A stretch of DNA of 49,529 nt, taken from positions 64,001-113,529 of the forward strand of contig NZ_JAHDIG010000005.1 in assembly GCF_020630935.1 (NCBI RefSeq). Direction: 5' to 3'. The DNA is from Bernardetia sp. Its GTDB lineage: Bacteria; Bacteroidota; Bacteroidia; Cytophagales; Bernardetiaceae. This document shows positions 5,200 through 49,227 of the stretch, in pieces. The notes beneath the pieces were generated by a model. It saw only the letters and a list, made by a program, of their open reading frames with translations, did not search any database and was not told the DNA's origin. Each line of letters starts with the position of its first letter. Position 1 is the stretch's first letter. Made by a program: the position numbers and the translations under genes.

Positions 5200-5207
5200 A
5201 GCTTTTC

Positions 5208-5282
5208 AGTTTACAGTAAACAGTTATCAGTTACCAGTGCTAATTTTCTTGTTTACTGGTAACTGATAACTGCTAACTGATT
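5208..5282. repeat. Heptamer-repeat hairpin: (CAGTNNN)x5 at 5208-5242, 12-nt spacer, inverted (ACTGNTA)x4 at 5255-5282; contains a perfect 18-bp inverted repeat CAGTTATCAGTTACCAGT/ACTGGTAACTGATAACTG
   Basis: Read directly from the sequence. It lies between the aroE start and the tal stop, overlaps the tal stop codon, and probably serves as the tal terminator structure. Confidence 0.7.
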
Positions 5283-9453: not shown

Positions 9454-9496
9454 AAAATGGAACGAAAAAAATGAAATAGTTGTTCCAATAGAATCT

Positions 9497-9772
9497 ATGA
9501 AACACATCAATACACTTGAGCTAAAGTTTTATGATAATATAAAGGCTCATATTGCAAAAATTAAAGACAAAGAACGAGCAAATATAGAATATGTAAGTCT
9601 TAATACAGCTAAAATATCAATTGGTAAAGAGAGTAGTTATCAAGTAATTCGTAATTTTTATGAGTATTATGTGGATGGAAAATCCGTATATAGGCATATA
9701 TCCGAATACTATTGGAAGCAGAAAATCTCTAATAAAAACCTTAGTTATGATAGGCTGGATAGGCGCATTTGA
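9497..9772 (+). CDS. Hypothetical protein (questionable; overlaps the next ORF by 113 bp in another frame)
   Basis: 91-aa ORF in the track with no recognisable motif. Its 3' part is overlapped by the 9660 ORF, and a two-unit AATTCGT heptamer repeat (9645-9659) lies inside it. Confidence 0.25.
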   Translation: MKHINTLELKFYDNIKAHIAKIKDKERANIEYVSLNTAKISIGKESSYQVIRNFYEYYVDGKSVYRHISEYYWKQKISNKNLSYDRLDRRI

Positions 9773-10112
9773 CAACGAAATATCCGATTGGACAGAGATG
9801 AAAGATTTTTTGTTGGAGGAAATTACAAGAGAAGAAGCAATGAGCCAATTTCCAACAAAGAAAAATAAGGTTGAGAGCTTTATGGAATACAGAGAAAACT
9901 GTGAAAAGGACAAATGGCAAACTTTGTACGGTTGTACGTGTGGTGATTCAGGTTGTAGTGGTTTGGGGACAATTATTACAAAAAAAGAAGATTCTTATAT
10001 CTGGACTTTTGGAGAGGAAGAGAATGAACTACAATTTATATTTGAGGAAAGTCAGTACCGTATGGCTTTTCAAAAGGCTTTGAAAGAAATTCATTCAAAG
10101 TTAAAAAGTTGA
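9660..10112 (+). CDS. Hypothetical protein with a Cys-rich CTCGDSGCSG segment
   Basis: 150-aa ORF. An in-frame stop at 9645-9647 precedes the ATG. The heptamer repeat immediately upstream mirrors the arrangement in front of hflX. Confidence 0.45.
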   Translation: MSIMWMENPYIGIYPNTIGSRKSLIKTLVMIGWIGAFDNEISDWTEMKDFLLEEITREEAMSQFPTKKNKVESFMEYRENCEKDKWQTLYGCTCGDSGCSGLGTIITKKEDSYIWTFGEEENELQFIFEESQYRMAFQKALKEIHSKLKS

Positions 10113-10195
10113 TGTAAACAACTAACAAAAGCAGAAAAGTAGTGTTCAAAATACAAACTATTAAATGTCAAAGAATTATGAGTCTATAATTTATT

Positions 10196-10223
10196 CATTC
10201 GTAATTCGTAATTCGTAATTGAT
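10196..10223. repeat. Tandem heptamer array (ACGAATT-type, minus orientation): CATTCGT AATTCGT AATTCGT AATTGAT, ending 3 nt before the hflX ATG
   Basis: Read directly from the sequence. It belongs to the same family as the arrays at 29853-29880 and 45411-45445. Confidence 0.7.
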
Positions 10224-10226
10224 TTT

Positions 10227-11462
10227 ATGCTAGAAACTCAAAATACAAAAGTAGAAACTGCCGTTTTGGTAGGAATTGTCAATCAAACACAAACATTACA
10301 AAAATCACAAGAATATTTAGATGAATTAGAATTTTTAGCCGAGACCTTAGGCATCAAAACCATAAAAAGGTTTACTCAAACGCTTGATACGCCTGACACA
10401 AGAACCTTTGTACGAACAGGAAAAATAGAGGAGATTAGGGAGTTTATGGAAACTAAAGAAGTAGATACCGTCATCTTTGATGATGAACTTTCTGCTCGCC
10501 ACGTCCGAAATATTGAAAAGGAATTTGAAGGAAAACAAGTTTTTGATAGGGCAACACTCATCTTAGAAATCTTTAGGCACAGGGCGCAAACTTCACAAGC
10601 CAAAACGCAAGTGGAATTGGCTCGTTATCAGTATCTTTTGCCTCGCCTTACCAATATGTGGACACACCTTTCTCGTCAGCGTGGTGGTATCGGACAGCGT
10701 GGTGCAGGGGAGAAGGAAATTGAAACCGACCGTCGTATTGTTAGAGACAGGATTACGCTTTTGAGAGAAAAACTTCAAAAGATAGAAAAACAAGCTGAAA
10801 CCCGTCGCAAACAGCGTAATAAAGTGGTGCGTGTTTCTCTTGTGGGTTATACCAATGTTGGGAAATCTACACTGATGCGTCTCTTGACAGGTTCGGATGT
10901 CTTTGCAGAAAACAAACTCTTTGCTACTGTCGATTCTACGGTACGTAAAGTTTTTTGGGATGGTATTCCATTTCTACTTTCCGATACAGTAGGTTTTATC
11001 CGTAAACTTCCGACGATGCTGATTGAGAGTTTTAAATCTACGTTGCAGGAAATTGTAGAGGCTGATGTTTTGATTCATGTAGTGGATATTTCACATCCTG
11101 CTTTCGAAGAGCATATTAAAGTAGTACAGGAAACACTCCAAGAGCTAGGAGCAACTGACAAACCGACGCTTTTAGTATTCAATAAAATTGATGCTTATAC
11201 GCACGATGTAAATGTAGGTCAGAATTATTTGGTTTGTCCTCCAACACTTGAAGAACTCAAAGATTCTTACTTGGCTTCTGATAAGAAAAATACAGTTTTT
11301 GTTTCTGCTCACAACAAGGAAAACATCGACGAACTCAAAGACAAACTCTTAGAACTAATTGCAGCTCGTCATTTTCAGATTTATCCAAATTATGTGCGTC
11401 CAAATTATTATGCCGAAGAATATAACCCAAAAGATTATGGTATAAATGAGGAGGAGGAATAG
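10227..11462 (+). CDS. hflX: GTPase HflX
   Basis: 411 aa with an HflX N-terminal domain, GYTNVGKST (G1), DTVGF (G3) and NKID (G4). Confidence 0.85.
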   Translation: MLETQNTKVETAVLVGIVNQTQTLQKSQEYLDELEFLAETLGIKTIKRFTQTLDTPDTRTFVRTGKIEEIREFMETKEVDTVIFDDELSARHVRNIEKEFEGKQVFDRATLILEIFRHRAQTSQAKTQVELARYQYLLPRLTNMWTHLSRQRGGIGQRGAGEKEIETDRRIVRDRITLLREKLQKIEKQAETRRKQRNKVVRVSLVGYTNVGKSTLMRLLTGSDVFAENKLFATVDSTVRKVFWDGIPFLLSDTVGFIRKLPTMLIESFKSTLQEIVEADVLIHVVDISHPAFEEHIKVVQETLQELGATDKPTLLVFNKIDAYTHDVNVGQNYLVCPPTLEELKDSYLASDKKNTVFVSAHNKENIDELKDKLLELIAARHFQIYPNYVRPNYYAEEYNPKDYGINEEEE

Positions 11463-25318: not shown

Positions 25319-25705
25319 CTATTCTTCATTTGGATAAGGCACAAAAACAAAACGAGTAAACTGCTCATCTATCACAAAAAGACAGCAAAACTCCTCTGGG
25401 TTTTTGTAAGCAGCCTTAAAACGTTGGCTTCCTTCTTCATCTAAGATATTTCTCTGTTCAAACTCTTCTAAAAACGAAGCATAATAATCCCATTCAAGCT
25501 GTGGCATATCTGCTTTAGAAAATAAAATTTGTCCGATGGGCTGTGGGGCTTTACAGATAGGAAATACTGGATAATCTGAAAAACCTCTTTTCTTGATTTG
25601 ATAGGCAGCTTCTTTTAAGTTATCTGCAATCTTGACAAAGTTGGTAGTTAGTTTTCCTAAATATTTAAAATCTAGTTCTGCGTCGTTGTAGTCTTCTATT
25701 TCCAT
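25319..25705 (-). CDS. Hypothetical cytoplasmic protein
   Basis: 128 aa with no recognisable motif. Its 5' UTR carries a five-unit heptamer array. Confidence 0.5.
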   Translation of the reverse strand: MEIEDYNDAELDFKYLGKLTTNFVKIADNLKEAAYQIKKRGFSDYPVFPICKAPQPIGQILFSKADMPQLEWDYYASFLEEFEQRNILDEEGSQRFKAAYKNPEEFCCLFVIDEQFTRFVFVPYPNEE

Positions 25706-25710
25706 TTCTA

Positions 25711-25745
25711 ATCAGTTAGCAGTTACCAGTAATCAGTAACCAGTT
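25711..25745. repeat. Tandem heptamer array (NNNCAGT)x5: AATCAGT TAGCAGT TACCAGT AATCAGT AACCAGT
   Basis: Same CAGT-type family as the 5208-5282 hairpin. It begins 6 nt upstream of the start codon of the 25319..25705 gene, just after the M28 peptidase stop. Confidence 0.7.
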
Positions 25746-28522: not shown

Positions 28523-28611
28523 CTTAACAAAGATTTAAAATAGTATGAGAATAGTATGAAAAGATAATTCTTAAAATAAAATATAGTCTTGATACACTAG
28601 AGCTTTCATAG

Positions 28612-28683
28612 AGCCAACGATGGGAATTGAACCCACGACCTCTTCCTTACCAAGGAAGCGCTCTACCCCTGAGCTACATCGGC
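28612..28683 (-). tRNA. tRNA-Thr (anticodon GGT)
   Basis: Cloverleaf read by hand: GCCGATGTAGCTCAGGGGTAGAGCGCTTCCTTGGTAAGGAAGAGGTCGTGGGTTCAATTCCCATCGTTGGCT. Both the T-arm GTGGG-TTCAATT-CCCAT and the acceptor stem GCCGATG/CGTTGGC require G-U wobble pairs, and the anticodon loop is CTTGGTAAG. Confidence 0.85.
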
Positions 28684-28835
28684 TTATAGCACTATACAAA
28701 CTTTCCATACTCTATTATCTTTATTTAAAATTTTGAAAATTTTAAAATCAGAACATAGTGAAAAGTTTGTATTCAATTAGTGTTATCTAATGCTGCTATA
28801 AAAAATACCAATAGTTACGTATCAGATTATATTTG

Positions 28836-28908
28836 AGCGAGAGACGAGGCTCGAACCCGCGACCTACAGCTTGGAAGGCTGTCGCTCTACCAACTGAGCT
28901 ACTCTCGC
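28836..28908 (-). tRNA. tRNA-Gly (anticodon TCC)
   Basis: GCGAGAGTAGCTCAGTTGGTAGAGC...anticodon loop CTTCCAA...TTCGAGC T-loop, acceptor stem GCGAGAG/CTCTCGC. Confidence 0.85.
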
Positions 28909-29016
28909 TTATTAATTTAGATTGAAATTAAAATTAATTTCAAAATTTGGTTTTGTTTGATATGAATCAAATATTTATTCCTAATGAATAAATGATAGTT
29001 TAATGAAAACTATTTG

Positions 29017-29099
29017 TGGGGGGAGCAGGATTCGAACCTGCGAAGAAATTAATCAACGGATTTACAGTCCGTCCCAGTTGGCCGCTTTGGTATCCCCCC
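29017..29099 (-). tRNA. tRNA-Tyr (anticodon GTA), long variable arm
   Basis: GGGGGGATACCAAAGCGGCCAACTGGGACGGACTGTAAATCCGT...GCAGGTTCGAATCCTGCTCCCCCCA; type II tRNA with an 83-nt length. Confidence 0.85.
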
Positions 29100-29357: not shown

Positions 29358-29729
29358 TTAGTTTCCTGCTTTTCCGTCTTCATTTGGATCAGAAGGATTA
29401 GTTACTTCATTTTGTTCTAATTGAGTTCCTCCATCAAGTTGATTTGGAACAACTTGTTCTTTGGCTTTCTCAATGTTTGGACTGATATAAGTTGGTGCTT
29501 TTGCATCTGTAAGGAGAGTTGCTCCAATACTTCCAACAAAAACAATAGCTATAAGTGTCCAAGTAATTTTTTCCATTATGTTAGTAGTGTTTTTTGCTCC
29601 CATAATTTGGTTTGCTCCTGCACCTCCAAATTCTTTAGAGATTCCACTACCTTTTGGTTCTTGAGCTAGTACGACTACCATCAGAAGAATAGCAACAAAA
29701 AGTACTATGCTTATTAAAACGTATAACAT
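29358..29729 (-). CDS. secG: Preprotein translocase subunit SecG
   Basis: 123 aa with an N-terminal TM helix, ..AQEPKGSGISKEFGGAG.., a second TM helix and a low-complexity tail. Confidence 0.7.
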   Translation of the reverse strand: MLYVLISIVLFVAILLMVVVLAQEPKGSGISKEFGGAGANQIMGAKNTTNIMEKITWTLIAIVFVGSIGATLLTDAKAPTYISPNIEKAKEQVVPNQLDGGTQLEQNEVTNPSDPNEDGKAGN

Positions 29730-29852: not shown

Positions 29853-29880
29853 AATTACGAATTACGAATTACGAATTCTT
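29853..29880. repeat. Tandem heptamer array AATTACG AATTACG AATTACG AATTCTT
   Basis: Three perfect units plus one degenerate unit, between the secG start and the DUF1343 stop. Confidence 0.75.
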
Positions 29881-29964: not shown

Positions 29965-31233
29965 TTATTCAAAATCTTGATAGAGCAAATATTTTTTTCT
30001 CATTTTTTTATAGTTTTCCAAATTTTCTTGCCAAGTAGCTTTAATTTCTTGCTCTGATTTTCCTTCTTTTATTTGAGCTTGCAATTTTTCATTTCCTGCT
30101 AACGTATTGAAGTAAGAGTTGAAGAAATTACTTTCTAATTCATTTTTTTTCATTATTTCATAGAAATTTAGAATAGGCTTCAAGGAGAAATTACCTTCTA
30201 ATTCATTTGGAGTGTATTTTATTCCATAACACAACTTATCTTGAAAAGGTGGATATTTTGCACCTTCATTGGGGATGGGGGTAAATGAGATGTTAGAATT
30301 TTCCTTTGGGAATTTTGGATGTCCTGTTACTTCAAAAGGAAAATCTGTTCCACGTCCTACACTCATAGTTGTTCCTTCAAATAAACACAAAGAAGGATAA
30401 AGCAATATTGAACTTTGAGTTGGGAGGTTGGGCGACGGAGCAATTTTCAATGTATATCTGTCTTTATGAGAATAGTTTTGGCAAGGAATGACGATTAAAT
30501 TTTCTCCTAATTGGTTTTGATTTTTGAGCCATTTTTCTCCTTCAATCATTTTGGCAAGTTCGCCTACTGTTAGTCCATGAACGATGGGAATTGGGTGCAT
30601 TCCAACAAAAGATTTGAATTTTTCTTCTCTGATGCAGCCATCTATATAAAAACCATTAGGATTTGGACGGTCTAAGATAATTATTTGCTTATCATTTTCA
30701 GCAGCAGCTTCCATACAATAGTCCATCGTACTGATATAAGTATAAAATCTTGCGCCTACATCTTGAATATCGAAGACTAGAACATCAATATTTTCTAGTT
30801 GCTCTTTTGTTGGTTTTTTATTTTTCCCATAAAGTGAAATTATATCAATTCCTGTTTTGGTGTCTTTTCCATTTTTTATAGTTTCCCCTGCACTAGCAGT
30901 TCCACGAAAACCATGTTCTGGAGCAAAAATAGTTTGAATATTAATTTGATTTTCTATTAGGAAATCTACTAAATGTATTGAGTCTTGCTTATTATCAATC
31001 ACAGAAGTATGATTGACAATCATTCCGACACGTTTATTTTTTATTTTATCGAAATATTTTTCTGTTTGTTCTGCACCTATGACTACTAATTTTGGTTCAA
31101 TATCTTTATCAATAACTTCTTTTTTCTGAATTTGAGTAGTGTCATTTTCTTTTGATATCGCCATTTTATTATTAGAGCTACAAGAAAAAAATAACAATAG
31201 TATTGGAAATATATAGATAAAGGGCAGTTTCAT
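29965..31233 (-). CDS. DUF1343-family protein (YbbC/NamZ-like exo-N-acetylmuramidase family), secreted/lipoprotein
   Basis: 422 aa with a lipobox signal LLLFFSC. Overall conservation fits DUF1343, and murQ is also in the window. Confidence 0.6.
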   Translation of the reverse strand: MKLPFIYIFPILLLFFSCSSNNKMAISKENDTTQIQKKEVIDKDIEPKLVVIGAEQTEKYFDKIKNKRVGMIVNHTSVIDNKQDSIHLVDFLIENQINIQTIFAPEHGFRGTASAGETIKNGKDTKTGIDIISLYGKNKKPTKEQLENIDVLVFDIQDVGARFYTYISTMDYCMEAAAENDKQIIILDRPNPNGFYIDGCIREEKFKSFVGMHPIPIVHGLTVGELAKMIEGEKWLKNQNQLGENLIVIPCQNYSHKDRYTLKIAPSPNLPTQSSILLYPSLCLFEGTTMSVGRGTDFPFEVTGHPKFPKENSNISFTPIPNEGAKYPPFQDKLCYGIKYTPNELEGNFSLKPILNFYEIMKKNELESNFFNSYFNTLAGNEKLQAQIKEGKSEQEIKATWQENLENYKKMRKKYLLYQDFE

Positions 31234-43591: not shown

Positions 43592-45415
43592 ATGTCAAAC
43601 GTAGCAGAACAAGAAGCGTTGAAAGAAGCCCTAAGAGGAGGCGAATTTTTAATTAAAGAATCTTCAGCAGATGATATTTTTATCCCTGAAGAATTTTCTG
43701 AAGAGCAGCAGATGATGGCAAAAGCCACTGATGACTTTGTAAATATGGAAATTACTCCTATTGCAGAGAAAATTGATAAAATGCAAGACCCAGAGCTTAT
43801 GCCTTCACTTCTTACTAAGGCTGGCGAACTTGGTCTTTTGGGGATTGGTGTACCAGAAGATTTAGACGGACTTGGAATGAGCTTCAACACAACTATGCTT
43901 ATTGCAGATGTTGTAGGTTCAGCAGGCTCTTTCTCAACAGCTTACGGAGCGCACACAGGAATCGGAACACTTCCAATTTTGTATTATGGCAACGAAGAGC
44001 AAAAGAAAAAATATATTCCTAAACTAGCTACTGGTGAGTGGAAAGCGTGTTACTGTTTGACAGAGCCAGATGCAGGCTCGGATGCAAACTCTGGAAAAAC
44101 TAAGGCAGTTTTGTCAGAAGATGGAAAATATTATTCTATCACTGGACAGAAAATGTGGATAACAAACGGTGGTTTTGCTGATGTATTTATTGTATTTGCT
44201 CGTATTGAAGACGATAAAAACCTTACAGCATTCATCGTAGAGCGTAATTATAACGGAATTACAATGAACGAAGAAGAGCAAAAACTAGGCATCAAAGGTT
44301 CTTCTACTCGTCAGATATTCTTCAACGATACAAAAGTTCCTGTTGAGAATATGCTTTCAGAGCGTGGTAATGGTTTCAAAATCGCTGTAAATATTCTTAA
44401 CATCGGTCGTATCAAATTGGGTGCTGGCGTATTGAATGGTTGTCGCCAAGTGATTCGTTATTCTGTTCGTTATGGAAATGAGCGTAAGCAGTTTAATACT
44501 CCAATTTCTTCTTTTGGAGCAATCAAGTATAAATTAGCTGAAATGACTGCTCGTAACTATGCGACAGAATCGTTGTGTTATGCAGCAGGTCAAGATATTG
44601 ACGACCGTATTACATATTTGCGTAAGTCAGGTATGGATGCAGCAGAATCTAAGCTCAAAGGTGTAGAAGAATTTGCCATTGAGTGTGCGATTGCTAAAGT
44701 ACACGGTTCTGAAACATTAGATTACTGTGTAGATGAAGGCGTACAGATTTATGGTGGTATGGGATTCTCTGAAGATGCTCCTATGGCTCGTGCGTATCGT
44801 GATGCACGTATTGCACGTATTTATGAAGGTACGAACGAAATTAACCGTATGCTTTTGGTAGGAATGATTTTACGTCGTGCTATGAAAGGCGATTTGGATG
44901 TTCTTTCACATGCAAAAGCAGTAGGAAAAGAACTTCTTCAAATGCCTGCACCAGCAAATATTGACCGTACACAACCATTTGCAGCAGAAAAAGAACTTAT
45001 TTCTCGTATGAAGAAAGCTGTTTTGATGGTAGCAGGAAAAGCTGCTCAAACATTTGGTCCAAAACTTAATGATGAGCAAATTCTTTTGATGGCTGTTGCT
45101 GATATGATTATTGAAGTATATGCAGCAGAAACGTCTATTATGCGTGCTGAAAAATTAGTTCGTCAGCATGGAGAAAGTGTAGATGGAATCAAAGCTAAAT
45201 TGGCGAAACTTTATCTTCAATTAGCTGTAAACAAGTTAGAGCAAAAAGGACGTGAAGCGATTTCTTGTTTCTCTAAAGGCGATGAGATGCGTGTTCTTTT
45301 GATGGGCTTGAAGCGTTTTACTAAGCACGAGCCAATCAATCAGCGTGAACTTCGCCACGAAATTGCAGACCACATGATTGAGAAAAATGATTATGCGTAT
45401 AAACTTTGGGCGTAA
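43592..45415 (+). CDS. Acyl-CoA dehydrogenase (long FadE-like form)
   Basis: 607 aa with CLTEPDAGSDA, ACAD middle and C-terminal domains, and an extended C-terminal region. Confidence 0.8.
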   Translation: MSNVAEQEALKEALRGGEFLIKESSADDIFIPEEFSEEQQMMAKATDDFVNMEITPIAEKIDKMQDPELMPSLLTKAGELGLLGIGVPEDLDGLGMSFNTTMLIADVVGSAGSFSTAYGAHTGIGTLPILYYGNEEQKKKYIPKLATGEWKACYCLTEPDAGSDANSGKTKAVLSEDGKYYSITGQKMWITNGGFADVFIVFARIEDDKNLTAFIVERNYNGITMNEEEQKLGIKGSSTRQIFFNDTKVPVENMLSERGNGFKIAVNILNIGRIKLGAGVLNGCRQVIRYSVRYGNERKQFNTPISSFGAIKYKLAEMTARNYATESLCYAAGQDIDDRITYLRKSGMDAAESKLKGVEEFAIECAIAKVHGSETLDYCVDEGVQIYGGMGFSEDAPMARAYRDARIARIYEGTNEINRMLLVGMILRRAMKGDLDVLSHAKAVGKELLQMPAPANIDRTQPFAAEKELISRMKKAVLMVAGKAAQTFGPKLNDEQILLMAVADMIIEVYAAETSIMRAEKLVRQHGESVDGIKAKLAKLYLQLAVNKLEQKGREAISCFSKGDEMRVLLMGLKRFTKHEPINQRELRHEIADHMIEKNDYAYKLWA

Positions 45416-45445
45416 TTTAATTACGAATTATCAATTATAAATTAC
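45411..45445. repeat. Degenerate tandem heptamer array (NNAATTA)n: GCGTAAT TTAATTA CGAATTA TCAATTA TAAATTA CGAATTG
   Basis: It overlaps the acyl-CoA DH stop codon and belongs to the same AATTACG family as 10196-10223 and 29853-29880. Confidence 0.55.
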
Positions 45446-45470
45446 GAATTGATAGTTCATATACAATACA

Positions 45471-45518
45471 AAAGCCTTACAGATTTTCCTTTTTGGAATT
45501 TTTGTAAGGCTTTTTTAT
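45471..45518. terminator. Bidirectional terminator hairpin (AAAGCCTTACA...TGTAAGGCTTT with a nested TTCC/GGAA stem, flanked by A/T runs)
   Basis: 11-bp outer stem followed by T6 and preceded by an A-run, between the convergent acyl-CoA DH and 45569 genes. Confidence 0.6.
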
Positions 45519-45568
45519 ACAATTAATCAAAACAATATAATTCAAAATGTAATTCTTTGATAACTGAA

Positions 45569-46348
45569 TTACGCCTCTTTAATAAACCTAACAAGTTGTC
45601 TTGCTTGGTTGAGAAATTGAGCATCTTCTGAAAGAGAGGCTATTTTATTTTCAGTTTGTTTGACAAGTGCTTGATGATTAGTGTTCATCTGAACATTCAA
45701 AGTTTCAAAATTCTGACGAATTTGTCGCATCGATTCTCTAAGTTCTTGTATTTCATTATCTTTTTTACTTATCCAAGAAGTTGGATTTTCGTGGTTTAGT
45801 TTTTCAGCAATCATATCTACCTTATATTTCAAATCTTCCAAATCCATCGTAACTTTATTGATGTCTTCTCTAGGATATTTTATACGTTGGCTCATGTTTG
45901 AAAGGCGATACGAAATGTATTCATACATTCTTACTGAAGGGCGAAGAGCTGTGAGGGCAAGTGCAAAAGCTGCTCCCACATAACCTACTACACTAACACC
46001 TGTTTTGGCTAAAAAGTACAAGCCAATAGCTGACAAAATATGTAGAAAAATAGCAACAAAAAGATACGTTTTGGATATTTTATTAGCGTACTCAACATCA
46101 ATATTTTCGACACTAATTCCTGTATTTTGAGATTCTTTTACATCTGATAAAATTTCTTTTGCCTTAAAGTGCATATTCCAAGGAACTGTGGTGATGAGCA
46201 GTAGCCACCAAAAACAACCTACTCCGATTGCCCAATCCATAAAATCACCTGTTGGAATATTAAGCCATTTCAAAACAGCAAAAACAATCAAAACTAAAAA
46301 GGTAATGCCCACTAAAGATGCGCTAATGTCTGAGGATGATTTTTTCAT
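45569..46348 (-). CDS. Hypothetical membrane protein (four N-terminal TM helices, C-terminal coiled coil)
   Basis: 259 aa with N-terminal LVGITFLVLIVFAVL and WAIGVGCFWWLLLITTV, and a C-terminal heptad-rich segment. Confidence 0.5.
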   Translation of the reverse strand: MKKSSSDISASLVGITFLVLIVFAVLKWLNIPTGDFMDWAIGVGCFWWLLLITTVPWNMHFKAKEILSDVKESQNTGISVENIDVEYANKISKTYLFVAIFLHILSAIGLYFLAKTGVSVVGYVGAAFALALTALRPSVRMYEYISYRLSNMSQRIKYPREDINKVTMDLEDLKYKVDMIAEKLNHENPTSWISKKDNEIQELRESMRQIRQNFETLNVQMNTNHQALVKQTENKIASLSEDAQFLNQARQLVRFIKEA

Positions 46349-47733: not shown

Positions 47734-49227
47734 ATGAAAAATACGCTCATTTGGCTTCGCAACGATTTACGTCTCAATGATAATCCTGCTTTAAAGAAAG
47801 CATTTCAGACTGGAAATAACGTTTTTGTTGTCTATATTTTTGACGACCATTATTTTCAAAAAACTGAACTCAATTTACCCAAAACAGGCATTTTTAGAGC
47901 CAATTTTTTATTAGAGTCTATACAAGACCTCAAAAAAAGACTACAAGAATATAATTCTGACCTTTTTATTTACAAAGGAAAAACAGAGGAAATTTTACCC
48001 AAACTGGCAAAAAAACTGGAAGTAGAAACCGTCTTTAGCTCAAAGGAAATAACTTTTGAAGAAATAAATTTGAAAAACAAAGTTAAAGGTGTTTTAGAAA
48101 AAGTAGATGTAAAGCTAGATGTAACGTTTCAACAAACTCTTTTTGAGGAAGAAGAATTGCCATTTACTCTTAGCGATTTGCCAAACGTGTTTACAAATTT
48201 TAGAAAGAAAGTAGAGAAAGAATTGGCAGTTTCAAAACTGATTCCTATTCCAAAAGAATTAGAGAAATTAAAGGAAACGGAAGAAAATGACTTTTTAAAT
48301 CAATTAGAAACAACTGAAGTTCCTACTCTCAAAGATTTTGACTTTTCAGCATCAGAAATTAATTCATTACACAATCCAAAAGCTGTTTTGAAATACGAAG
48401 GAGGAGAAACGGCAGCATTAGAGCGTCTGAACTATTATCTTTTTAAATCAGATTTGCTTCAAACCTATAAAGAAACACGCAACGGACTTTTAGGAGGTGA
48501 TTATTCGTCTAAATTTTCAGCGTGGTTGGCAAATGGCTGTATTTCTGCCAAAACGATTTGGAACGAAGTAGAGCGTTATGAAAACGAAGTAAAGAGCAAT
48601 AAATCTACCTACTGGCTGAAGTTTGAACTGCTTTGGAGAGAATATTTTAAGTGGATAGCCAAAAAATATGGCAATAAAATTTTCTTGTTGGAAGGAATGA
48701 AAGATGATGAAAACTTAGAGAAAATCTATGGAAAAGACAGAGAAAATCTGAAAAAACACTTTCAAAACGACCAAAACAAGAAGCTATTTGAAAAATGGAA
48801 AACTGCCAAAACAGGCATCCCGTTCATAGATGCCAATATGAAAGAGCTAAACGAAACAGGTTTTATGTCGAACAGAGGAAGGCAAAATGTAGCTTCTTTT
48901 TTGGTAAAAGACCTAAAACTAGACTGGCGATGGGGAGCTTCGTATTTTGAAACTAAGCTGATAGACTACGACGTTACGAGTAACTGGGCAAACTGGGCGT
49001 ATGTGGCTGGCGTAGGCAACGACCCAAGAGAAAACCGTTATTTTAATATCATCAAACAGGCAAAAGACTATGACGAAAATGCTGATTTTGTCAAACATTG
49101 GTTGCCACAGCTTTCAGATGTTCCAATTAATTTAGTGCATACACTCTACCGACTTACGCCCAAAGAACTGGAAAAGTACGAGGTTTCGTTAGGTGGAAAT
49201 TACCCTTATCCGATTGTGAAACTTTAA
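47734..49227 (+). CDS. Cryptochrome-DASH / deoxyribodipyrimidine photolyase family protein
   Basis: 497 aa. The N-terminus LIWLRNDLRLNDNPAL and C-terminal FAD-binding motifs (TG.P..DA.M..L..TG...NR.R) are present. Confidence 0.8.
   Translation: MKNTLIWLRNDLRLNDNPALKKAFQTGNNVFVVYIFDDHYFQKTELNLPKTGIFRANFLLESIQDLKKRLQEYNSDLFIYKGKTEEILPKLAKKLEVETVFSSKEITFEEINLKNKVKGVLEKVDVKLDVTFQQTLFEEEELPFTLSDLPNVFTNFRKKVEKELAVSKLIPIPKELEKLKETEENDFLNQLETTEVPTLKDFDFSASEINSLHNPKAVLKYEGGETAALERLNYYLFKSDLLQTYKETRNGLLGGDYSSKFSAWLANGCISAKTIWNEVERYENEVKSNKSTYWLKFELLWREYFKWIAKKYGNKIFLLEGMKDDENLEKIYGKDRENLKKHFQNDQNKKLFEKWKTAKTGIPFIDANMKELNETGFMSNRGRQNVASFLVKDLKLDWRWGASYFETKLIDYDVTSNWANWAYVAGVGNDPRENRYFNIIKQAKDYDENADFVKHWLPQLSDVPINLVHTLYRLTPKELEKYEVSLGGNYPYPIVKL

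Follow-up and report, generated by a model that had tools for sequence, protein, structure and literature searches.

Why the same seven nucleotides should be written out head to tail at the edges of unrelated genes is the question raised by a 49,529-nucleotide stretch of Bernardetia sp. (NCBI RefSeq assembly GCF_020630935.1, contig NZ_JAHDIG010000005.1, positions 64,001 to 113,529 of the forward strand), referred to here at its full length as the window. An earlier note on this DNA had described arrays of the heptamer AATTACG at four sites and had offered three candidate functions for them: half-sites for a DNA-binding protein, elements of untranslated regions (UTRs) that modulate translation, or slipped-strand contingency loci. 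Computational follow-up establishes three of the four sites as real tandem (AATTACG)n arrays, hereafter A (upstream of secG), B (upstream of hflX) and C (at the stop codon of an acyl-CoA dehydrogenase gene). They make up a genuine and non-random family of tandem arrays, with a 7-nt period, sited at gene boundaries, and we are highly confident that they belong to a known class of intergenic heptanucleotide repeats, the LSSR/STRR type. The overall account put forward here is a tentative one, namely that the arrays are slippage-born spacers, AU-rich and free of both structure and start codons, in the untranslated regions of mRNA. Its parts deserve separate weight: an origin by slippage is probable, and a function at the RNA level, as spacer or enhancer, is a possibility that we hold with greater doubt.

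Arrays at gene boundaries in the window

The three arrays, the hairpin next to array C and the fourth reported site are as follows, with units counted by Tandem Repeats Finder.

29853-29877, with a variant unit to 29880, minus strand: array A, 3.6 perfect units of AATTACG.
10197-10220, plus strand: array B, 3.4 perfect units, ATTCGT(AATTCGT)2AATT, in the stop-containing CGTAATT orientation.
45411-45450, plus strand: array C, 4.6 units, degenerate.
45466-45518, no strand assigned: long hairpin with a T-run, terminator-like, common to the convergent genes 43592-45415 (plus) and 45569-46348 (minus).
9643-9656, plus strand: not an array; coding sequence (V-I-R-N-F) in gene 9497-10112.

The periodicity is, as had been claimed, far beyond chance: a two-unit AATTACG pattern with at most two mismatches matches the window seven times against 0.54 expected, and none of 100 shuffles reaches seven. 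A tandem-array scan covering periods 4-12 returned eight period-7 arrays against 0.47 expected in Markov-1 simulations, with other periods near baseline, and period 7 is thus the sole over-represented repeat period in the window. Roughly 86% of the window is coding under a simple selection of open reading frames (ORFs); all robust arrays fall within the remaining ~14%, and none lies inside an ORF. Isolated AATTACG copies number nine when array copies are excluded, against 6.2 expected for all copies. The placement at gene boundaries reported earlier holds for the three real arrays and fails for 9643-9656, which is inside coding sequence.

Array A reads on the minus strand as a perfect (AATTCGT)3AATT, and its variant unit on the plus strand is AATTCTT. 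Both genes around it lie on the minus strand, secG at 29358-29729 and the NamZ/DUF1343 gene (namZ) at 29965-31233; the namZ stop codon is 88 nt before the array and the secG ATG 124 nt after it, and the array sits directly upstream of a conserved, promoter-like block of secG. Array B has the opposite orientation and ends 6 nt before the hflX ATG at 10227, rather than the 3 nt previously given; of the four units once counted there, 3.4 are perfect and the fourth, AATTGAT, is a variant. Both perfect arrays are (AATTCGT)3AATT, save for the first base of array B, and the only flank common to them is GATTTTA. Each is a lone direct array with neither an inverted partner nor significant predicted structure, and neither is accompanied by a transposase or any other mobility gene.

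Array C opens with an inverted unit, CGTAATT, and the stop codon of the acyl-CoA dehydrogenase gene (TAA, 45413-45415) lies inside that unit, as the overlap reported earlier implied. It then continues AATTACG AATTATC AATTATA AATTACG AATT, placing the array between the stop codon and the terminator-like hairpin, and a 12-bp predicted hairpin at 45425-45458 takes in part of it. The 116 nt that span the array and the longer hairpin (45405-45520) fold at -37.1 kcal/mol (z = -8.8). Missed by a simple terminator scan, the hairpin at 45466-45518 is kept in relatives and, to judge from its predicted fold, looks like a bidirectional terminator marking the end of a 3' UTR that would include array C.

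Two further details of this locus may be recorded. Both convergent genes end GCG TAA TT, so that each stop codon stands inside a CGTAATT unit, and at 45561-45573, at the stop of the minus-strand gene 45569-46348, TAACTGA and AATTACG share one base (TAACTGAATTACG).

Scans for sigma-70 promoters and terminators around the three arrays gave nothing above shuffle level, although such scans are ill-suited to Bacteroidetes promoters. In an Rfam scan of the window no family overlapped any array, the sole matches being three tRNAs at 28611-29099. Two proteins of the window were also looked up by exact match: HflX had no record, and the photolyase-family protein encoded at 47734-49227 was matched by a 2.6-kb contig alone.

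The fourth site had been described as two units immediately before the ATG of an ORF at 9660. Alignment with homologues shows it to be ordinary coding sequence: GTAATTCGTAATT encodes the V-I-R-N-F of a conserved motif, VIRNFYEYY, which is identical in the homologue P0364, and ORF 9497-9772 aligns straight through the supposed repeat to full-length homologues (E = 2e-28 to P0362). These are ~200-210 aa long in a search of protein-cluster representatives, and gene 9497-10112 represents a ~205-aa family with a frameshift near 9750 (9745-9755), ~100 nt past the supposed repeat. On these alignments the ATG at 9660 is evidently not a real start. A 7-nt slippage frameshift was considered for this site, given that removing one unit would fuse ORFs 9497-9772 and 9660-10112 into 202 codons; it was dropped because homologues show the 9497 frame to be native through and past the 'repeat', with the real frameshift near 9750. 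The frameshifted gene could be a pseudogene or an assembly error. It has no Pfam or NCBIfam match, carries a second conserved motif, YGCxCGxxGCxG, and its C-terminal 121 aa alone are matched by P0361 (121 aa, 100% identical).

The class to which we assign the arrays was not recognised in the earlier note, which also missed a second heptamer family of ACTGNNN type in the same window. Knowledge of heptamer repeats in bacteria goes back to 1990, and several phyla hold them in abundance, with no established function or reader. STRR and LSSR heptamers are those of Mazel 1990 and Mrazek 2007, as later summarised; GGGAATC and GGGGAYT repeats appear in PMC4692102, and the GGGAATC repeats of Xanthomonas are of the same class. 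Heptamers have been described as over-represented in intergenic regions and as occurring in inverted pairs, and polymerase slippage has been proposed to account for them (PMC4692102). The assignment follows from units that run head to tail beyond chance, from intergenic positions at several loci and from number and sequence that vary between species. Set beside the cyanobacterial STRR/LSSR repeats, AATTACG arrays share the heptamer period, the intergenic enrichment, the presence of many loci per genome, the occurrence both as direct arrays and as convergent inverted pairs, and the variation in length and sequence at one locus between related species. They differ in the unit itself, since the units described for those repeats are G-rich or otherwise different (CCCCAGT, TTGGTCA, CAACAGT, GGGAATC). 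Unlike the G-rich heptamers, AATTACG cannot form G-quadruplexes, and it occurs well outside cyanobacteria and in phages. A search of the open-access literature covering 12 of the 14 rotations of the unit returned only unrelated primers and motifs, and within that searchable literature AATTACG is a previously unnamed unit of a known class. In Nostoc, deletion of heptamer repeats near recO alters reporter behaviour, with no known binding partner (preprint 10.1101/2022.06.06.494920). Within the window, the arrays are ordinary members of the class.

Conservation and turnover among relatives

A sign of constraint comes from the hflX leader.

10153-10226, plus strand: conserved 74-nt block upstream of hflX, containing array B.

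Between the window and the related contig L121 this block differs at three positions (96% identity), whilst the hflX gene is 86% identical in DNA and its third codon positions are only 66.7% identical. Array B itself is identical at 24 of 24 positions, with equal copy number, in L121 and in L122, two metagenome contigs whose HflX is 94% identical; computed from the third-position identity, the chance that 24 neutral sites would remain unchanged is ~6e-5. By this comparison the hflX upstream block is shown to be under constraint. Upstream of the block the window and L121 are unrelated. More distant relatives (L123 and L124, HflX 84-87% identical) have no array at hflX and carry an A-rich leader instead.

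The hflX leader is predicted to be unstructured (-3.4 kcal/mol, z = +1.36), with 191 of 200 shuffles folding at least as well. Examined in this respect, the hflX array has the character expected of an A/U-rich enhancer or standby site, an unstructured AU-rich segment lying directly 5' of the initiation region. A metagenome scan for variants of the hflX leader with one to five units returned no matches. In Bernardetia sp. ABR2-2B a different gene has (CCGTAAT)3 in its leader, oriented like array B and ending 4 nt short of the ATG.

The slot between the DUF1015 gene and hflX is variable in its own right: it holds the frameshifted gene in the window (9454-10152), a Uma2-family gene in L121 (4350-5111) and no gene in L123 (9713-10000) or L124. 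The conserved leader, array B included, starts at the very edge of this slot.

Elsewhere the arrays turn over. Array A has no counterpart at the orthologous secG site of four congeners (L125-L128), one of which is B. litoralis DSM 6794, and in the window it abuts the left edge of the promoter-like block that all of those congeners keep. At the position of array C, relatives have three AATTACG units (L339-L348), one unit (L349) or a degenerate series (L350). The three-unit form is identical in 10 assembly contigs (L339-L348) of one 95%-identity lineage, and a scan of JGI metagenomes for its variants found three contigs, two of them the same records as L339 and L341, with the same copy number and spacing. 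The comparison of unit number between strains that the earlier note had proposed thus finds no length polymorphism in related contigs at hflX or at the acyl-CoA dehydrogenase gene, in samples that are small (three assemblies at hflX, 10 contigs at the homologue of array C) and may resample one strain. Alignment of these orthologous sites shows arrays that arise, expand, decay and are lost on a species time scale, and that by the same comparison are stable among close strains.

Within 150 nt upstream of an alanine dehydrogenase gene, ABR2-2B also carries scattered single or double CGTAATT-like units (L350 4680-4775; ATAATTCGTAATT, GTCATAATT, GTCGTAATT), which may be a decayed array.

Recurrence of the unit across phyla and phages

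Exact (AATTACG)3 was found at at least 120 genome loci, against ~0.3 occurrences that we estimate for a random 21-mer in 596 Gb. At least ten phyla are represented among the matches listed: Cyanobacteria (mostly Nostocales, the richest source among those matches), Bacteroidota, Ignavibacteriota, Acidobacteriota, Chloroflexota, Planctomycetota, Verrucomicrobiota and others, with taxon frequencies that are not to be read quantitatively. Gene calls in these foreign loci are heuristic; on those calls, the arrays at the 120 listed loci comprise 129 that are intergenic, 10 in heuristic ORFs and 15 near locus ends that were left unclassified. Convergent gene pairs surround them more often than divergent ones (35 vs 12). 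Inverted pairs, and adjoining arrays of other, unrelated heptamers, are common in these genomes. The ends of the arrays keep a strong phase: when they are read as CGTAATT, AATT is the exact terminus of 55-84%, where 14% would be expected. The wider significance of the arrays lies here, in that one AT-rich unit recurs, with fixed ends, in at least ten phyla and in phages of 24-67% GC.

Whether any heptamer would do as well can be gauged from viral contigs, in which exact three-unit matches were counted for several units.

AATTACG, target: 64
TAACTGA, known family: 107
AATTAGC, same-composition control: 22
ATATACG, same-composition control: 6
ATTAACG, same-composition control: 5
ACATTAG, same-composition control: 5
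AATTACC, one-mismatch neighbour: 12
GATTACG, one-mismatch neighbour: 1

AATTACG is thus 3-60 times commoner than the control heptamers in viral contigs, with the caveat that viral matches, above all those of TAACTGA, may include many related phages. Heptamer arrays are common in general, and AATTACG is a preferred unit.

The viral contigs that bear AATTACG span 24-67% GC. At the upper end, phage contig IMGVR_UViG_3300009868_000138 (L145, L153; 65% GC) carries at least 10 AATTACG arrays in 17.7 kb, all on one strand. At the eight junctions examined, the array is followed by a run, GGGGAGG, that resembles a Shine-Dalgarno (SD) sequence; a stop codon is visible before the array at five of the eight, and three show a start codon beyond the GGGGAGG. 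Arrays of AGGAATT adjoin the AATTACG arrays in this contig.

A different arrangement is seen in a siphovirus tail module, identified through PHROG matches, in which a single AATTACG array follows the major tail protein gene, and inverted pairs, (AATTACG)4-loop-(CGTAATT)4, occupy two further intercistronic gaps of the same operon. The predicted hairpin of such a pair has a folding energy of -29.6 kcal/mol (z = -5.5).

L150 5825-5899 and 9607-9680, and L163 1488-1562 and 2993-3075, siphovirus tail operon: intercistronic hairpins (AATTACG)4-loop-(CGTAATT)4-5.

Judging from the predicted folds, these hairpins might be RNA-processing or stabilising sites. Each of the two in L150 is followed by agcgaac(a/g)aagagagcgac and then by ATG.

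Among the Nostocales, arrays at seven loci (L006, L077, L063, L101, L116, L050 and L023) are followed by a common ~40-nt sequence, AAGAAAGTCAGATTT..TCTGGGTTTTG, which resembles a hairpin with a T-run; the terminator-like part reads AAGAAAGTCAGATTT..TCTGGGTTTT. Orthology of these loci was considered and rejected, the flanking genes being unrelated, and their sequences suggest that array and flank together may be a dispersed composite repeat element. No Rfam family matched in 18 cyanobacterial array loci.

Explanations for the arrays

Under the account preferred here, replication slippage with AATT-N3-AATT as its seed would create arrays and alter their length, a process that would explain their AATT-bounded ends, their presence or absence between species and the decay of old arrays. 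They would then lie in transcribed but untranslated sequence and have their effect as RNA, in the manner of AU-rich spacers. Whichever of the three frames is taken, the CGUAAUU reading supplies a UAA; AUG, GUG and UUG are absent from the unit, and a direct repeat of it cannot fold on itself. At hflX, the array would serve as a translation-initiation leader in an organism that does not rely on SD pairing, keeping the start region accessible and clear of rival start codons; it may in addition offer a landing site to a protein that binds single-stranded RNA, S1 for example. Array C would be 3'-UTR filler from the acyl-CoA dehydrogenase stop codon to the terminator, inverted pairs would form intercistronic hairpins, and in phages the spacer would sit 5' of the SD sequence. 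Of the functions suggested in the earlier note, a role in untranslated regions or in translation is the best supported, by an hflX leader that is unstructured and conserved and by the phage layout; the function itself is one that we infer.

Known biology offers partial parallels. Bacteroidetes initiate translation without SD pairing, and what tunes the process is mRNA structure, an A at -3 and the avoidance of AUG close to start codons (PMC6847099). The array conforms to this last property in having no AUG, and departs from the described optimum in that the hflX leader lacks the A at -3. At A/U-rich enhancers and standby sites (PMC2176067, PMC5934652), an AU-rich unstructured segment likewise lies directly upstream of the initiation region, as the array does at hflX and, directly 5' of the SD-like run, in the GC-rich phage; unlike AATTACG arrays, the known enhancers have neither a tandem heptamer layout nor a fixed unit.

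Several observations weigh against reading the arrays as transcribed spacers. Their transcription is itself a supposition, and array A, lying upstream of the secG promoter-like block, may be in no UTR at all. The whole 74-nt block is conserved at hflX, with the array not singled out, so the constraint could belong to a promoter. Nor does the hflX leader have the A-rich context of its relatives, or the A at -3, a base that favours initiation in F. johnsoniae. No overall strand bias is seen at the 120 listed loci (orientations 9 vs 6 before starts, 30 vs 32 after stops). Non-cyanobacterial arrays within 20 nt upstream of a long-ORF ATG do favour the CGTAATT orientation by 10 to 1 among the listed loci, but the taxon split that gives this ratio was made post hoc, and the start-proximal cyanobacterial arrays take the opposite orientation (0 vs 5). 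Finally, a purely physical spacer leaves the recurrence of AATTACG across phyla unexplained.

The main rival does without function altogether. In that case the arrays would be heptanucleotide microsatellites, neutral by-products of a 7-nt slippage bias of the replisome that are tolerated in intergenic DNA, and we consider it rather unlikely, albeit better placed than the remaining alternatives. Lineage-specific presence and absence at hflX and secG, the decay of array C, the lack of a global strand bias over the 120 listed loci and the many unrelated heptamer units that adjoin AATTACG arrays in other genomes are all consistent with it; AATT-bounded ends are the expected product of slippage on an AATT-N3-AATT seed, and a polymerase-footprint hypothesis is already in the literature (PMC4692102). 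What neutrality does not readily accommodate is a perfect hflX array that kept its copy number while one third of synonymous sites changed, the 3- to 60-fold excess over matched control heptamers in viral contigs, the occurrence of one unit in genomes and phages of 24% to 67% GC, and the stereotyped order of array and SD-like run at eight junctions of the 65% GC phage.

A bolder reading makes (AATTACG)n a specific cis-acting module, common to many phyla and phages and read in a 7-nt register, that would set translation or mRNA fate independently of GC content, as a portable element for leaders and intercistronic gaps. Its signatures would be the AATT-bounded ends, the excess over matched heptamers, the junctions of the 65% GC phage and the conserved hflX leader, and we regard it as unlikely. 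The reader of such a module may be S1 or another single-strand-binding protein of OB-fold or RRM type. A search for a candidate through shared gene families found no family in more than 6 of 64 array-bearing viral loci. The HutP antiterminator binds sites of the form (UAG-N4)3, and the cold-shock domain binds one protein per 6-7 nt; both systems likewise employ a 7-nt register on single-stranded RNA and an oligomeric or multi-copy protein, a resemblance only, as no such protein is linked to AATTACG. To our knowledge, cyanobacteria, the richest carriers of AATTACG arrays, lack classical cold-shock proteins. The hflX leader and one phage operon together make a compact, testable system for the action of heptamers on translation and for their binders.

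Recognition as duplex DNA is less probable again. The analogy is with omega, the ribbon-helix-helix repressor of pSM19035 (inc18 plasmids), which binds direct or inverted arrays of WATCACW heptads; here a small dimeric protein, binding cooperatively along contiguous heptads of 7 bp, would control the secG and hflX promoters. The likeness is one of contiguous 7-bp units in direct and inverted order, which omega reads cooperatively in duplex DNA; the omega heptad differs in sequence, its system is plasmid-specific with a cognate protein, and many AATTACG arrays lie elsewhere than at promoters. The case stands best for array A, which abuts the promoter-like block of secG, and array B lies inside the conserved 74-nt block; three units make 21 bp, or two helical turns, and the lack of global strand bias fits a duplex site. 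Against this, the comparison of 64 viral loci described above yielded no candidate binding protein, at least ten phyla and diverse phages are too broad a range for one specific regulator, and many arrays occupy the gap from a stop codon to the following SD or start inside operons, or from a stop codon to a terminator, where a promoter operator is unexpected. The DNA-binding half-sites suggested in the earlier note are accordingly neither supported nor excluded.

The arrays could also be parts or remnants of dispersed, possibly mobile elements, or of hairpin modules for RNA processing or termination in which the heptamer run is one arm. The terminator-like sequence shared by Nostocales arrays at non-orthologous loci, the inverted pairs with predicted hairpins in bacteria and phages and the predicted hairpin within array C all point that way. 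We judge it very improbable, given that arrays A and B are direct, unpaired, without significant structure and alike in flank only at GATTTTA, that no transposase or mobility gene accompanies them, and that neither the window nor the 18 cyanobacterial loci gave an Rfam match at an array.

Least credible of all are contingency loci, whose changes of copy number would switch or tune a neighbouring gene heritably and reversibly: slippage is to be expected, in principle, of perfect tandem repeats, species differ in the number of units at array C and in a TAACTGA array between the transaldolase gene and aroE, and contigs often break at such arrays, yet copy number is equal in the window, L121 and L122 at hflX and in 10 contigs plus three JGI matches (two the same records) at the acyl-CoA dehydrogenase site, the arrays are short (3-4 units), their neighbours (hflX, secG, acyl-CoA dehydrogenase) are housekeeping rather than surface or virulence genes, and none of the arrays is inside an ORF, the setting in which a gain or loss of 7 nt would change the reading frame, the 9643 case being ordinary coding. 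On these grounds of constant copy number, housekeeping neighbours and absence from ORFs, the contingency reading of the earlier note is unsupported, and we do not take the arrays for phase-variation switches.

The second heptamer family of the window is the published TAACTGA repeat of Bernardetia/Flexibacter litoralis, present at two sites.

5203-5238 and 5255-5279, minus strand: TAACTGA-type inverted arms between the transaldolase stop (5282) and the aroE ATG (5199).
25713-25744, minus strand: TAACTGA-type direct array, (ACTGNNN)4.5, forward on the gene strand.

Direct repeats of TAACTGA have been described from Beggiatoaceae, from Cyanobacteria and from five members of the Bacteroidetes, among them Flexibacter (now Bernardetia) litoralis DSM 6794, where they lie just upstream of start codons, and translational regulation through S1, cold-shock proteins or CsrA has been proposed for them (MacGregor 2015, PMC4679880). 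Cold-shock proteins are thus among the binders discussed for that family (PMC4679880). AATTACG arrays resemble it in being tandem 7-nt intergenic units (TAACTGA usually in 2-6 copies), in a similar range of phyla and presence in the same genus, at some sites in a stop-containing orientation a few nt upstream of starts without an SD sequence, and in occasional inverted or post-stop sets. That orientation just before a start is found at hflX (6 nt) and in ABR2-2B (4 nt), not at arrays A and C, and at the listed loci by 9 to 6. The AATTACG unit is unrelated, none of its rotations matching, and PMC4679880 does not mention it; array B alone, of the window's three AATTACG arrays, adjoins a start codon; and AATTACG arrays lack the overall strand bias that TAACTGA shows in viral contigs. 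In those contigs (L221-L327), UCAGUUA-sense arrays follow the stop of a long ORF within 20 nt by 72 to 3 and UAACUGA-sense arrays precede start codons by 14 to 0, counts that related phages may inflate, many of the contigs coming from one sample series.

In the window the inverted arms are predicted to pair over ~20 bp, giving a hairpin of -37.1 kcal/mol (z = -7.1). On the gene strand 9 nt separate the end of the forward arm from the aroE ATG, and two to three units at that end are not part of the stem; the direct array stops 7 nt before the ATG (25705) of ORF 25319-25705. At both sites the array adjoining the start codon is thus in forward orientation on the gene strand, in agreement with the F. 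litoralis pattern of PMC4679880. The array upstream of aroE is kept in L123. The arm by the transaldolase gene varies between lineages, with 3.5 degenerate units at one extreme and at least 7.7 perfect ones at the other: contig L124 opens (1-54) with at least 7.7 perfect CTGATAA (TAACTGA) units right after that gene, the same locus as the degenerate arm at 5255-5279 of the window, so that the assembly breaks within the expanded array.

Apart from these repeats, the tRNAs found in the Rfam scan form a cluster of tRNA-Thr(GGT), tRNA-Gly(TCC) and tRNA-Tyr(GTA) on the minus strand at 28611-29099, between secG and tuf, an ordinary arrangement.

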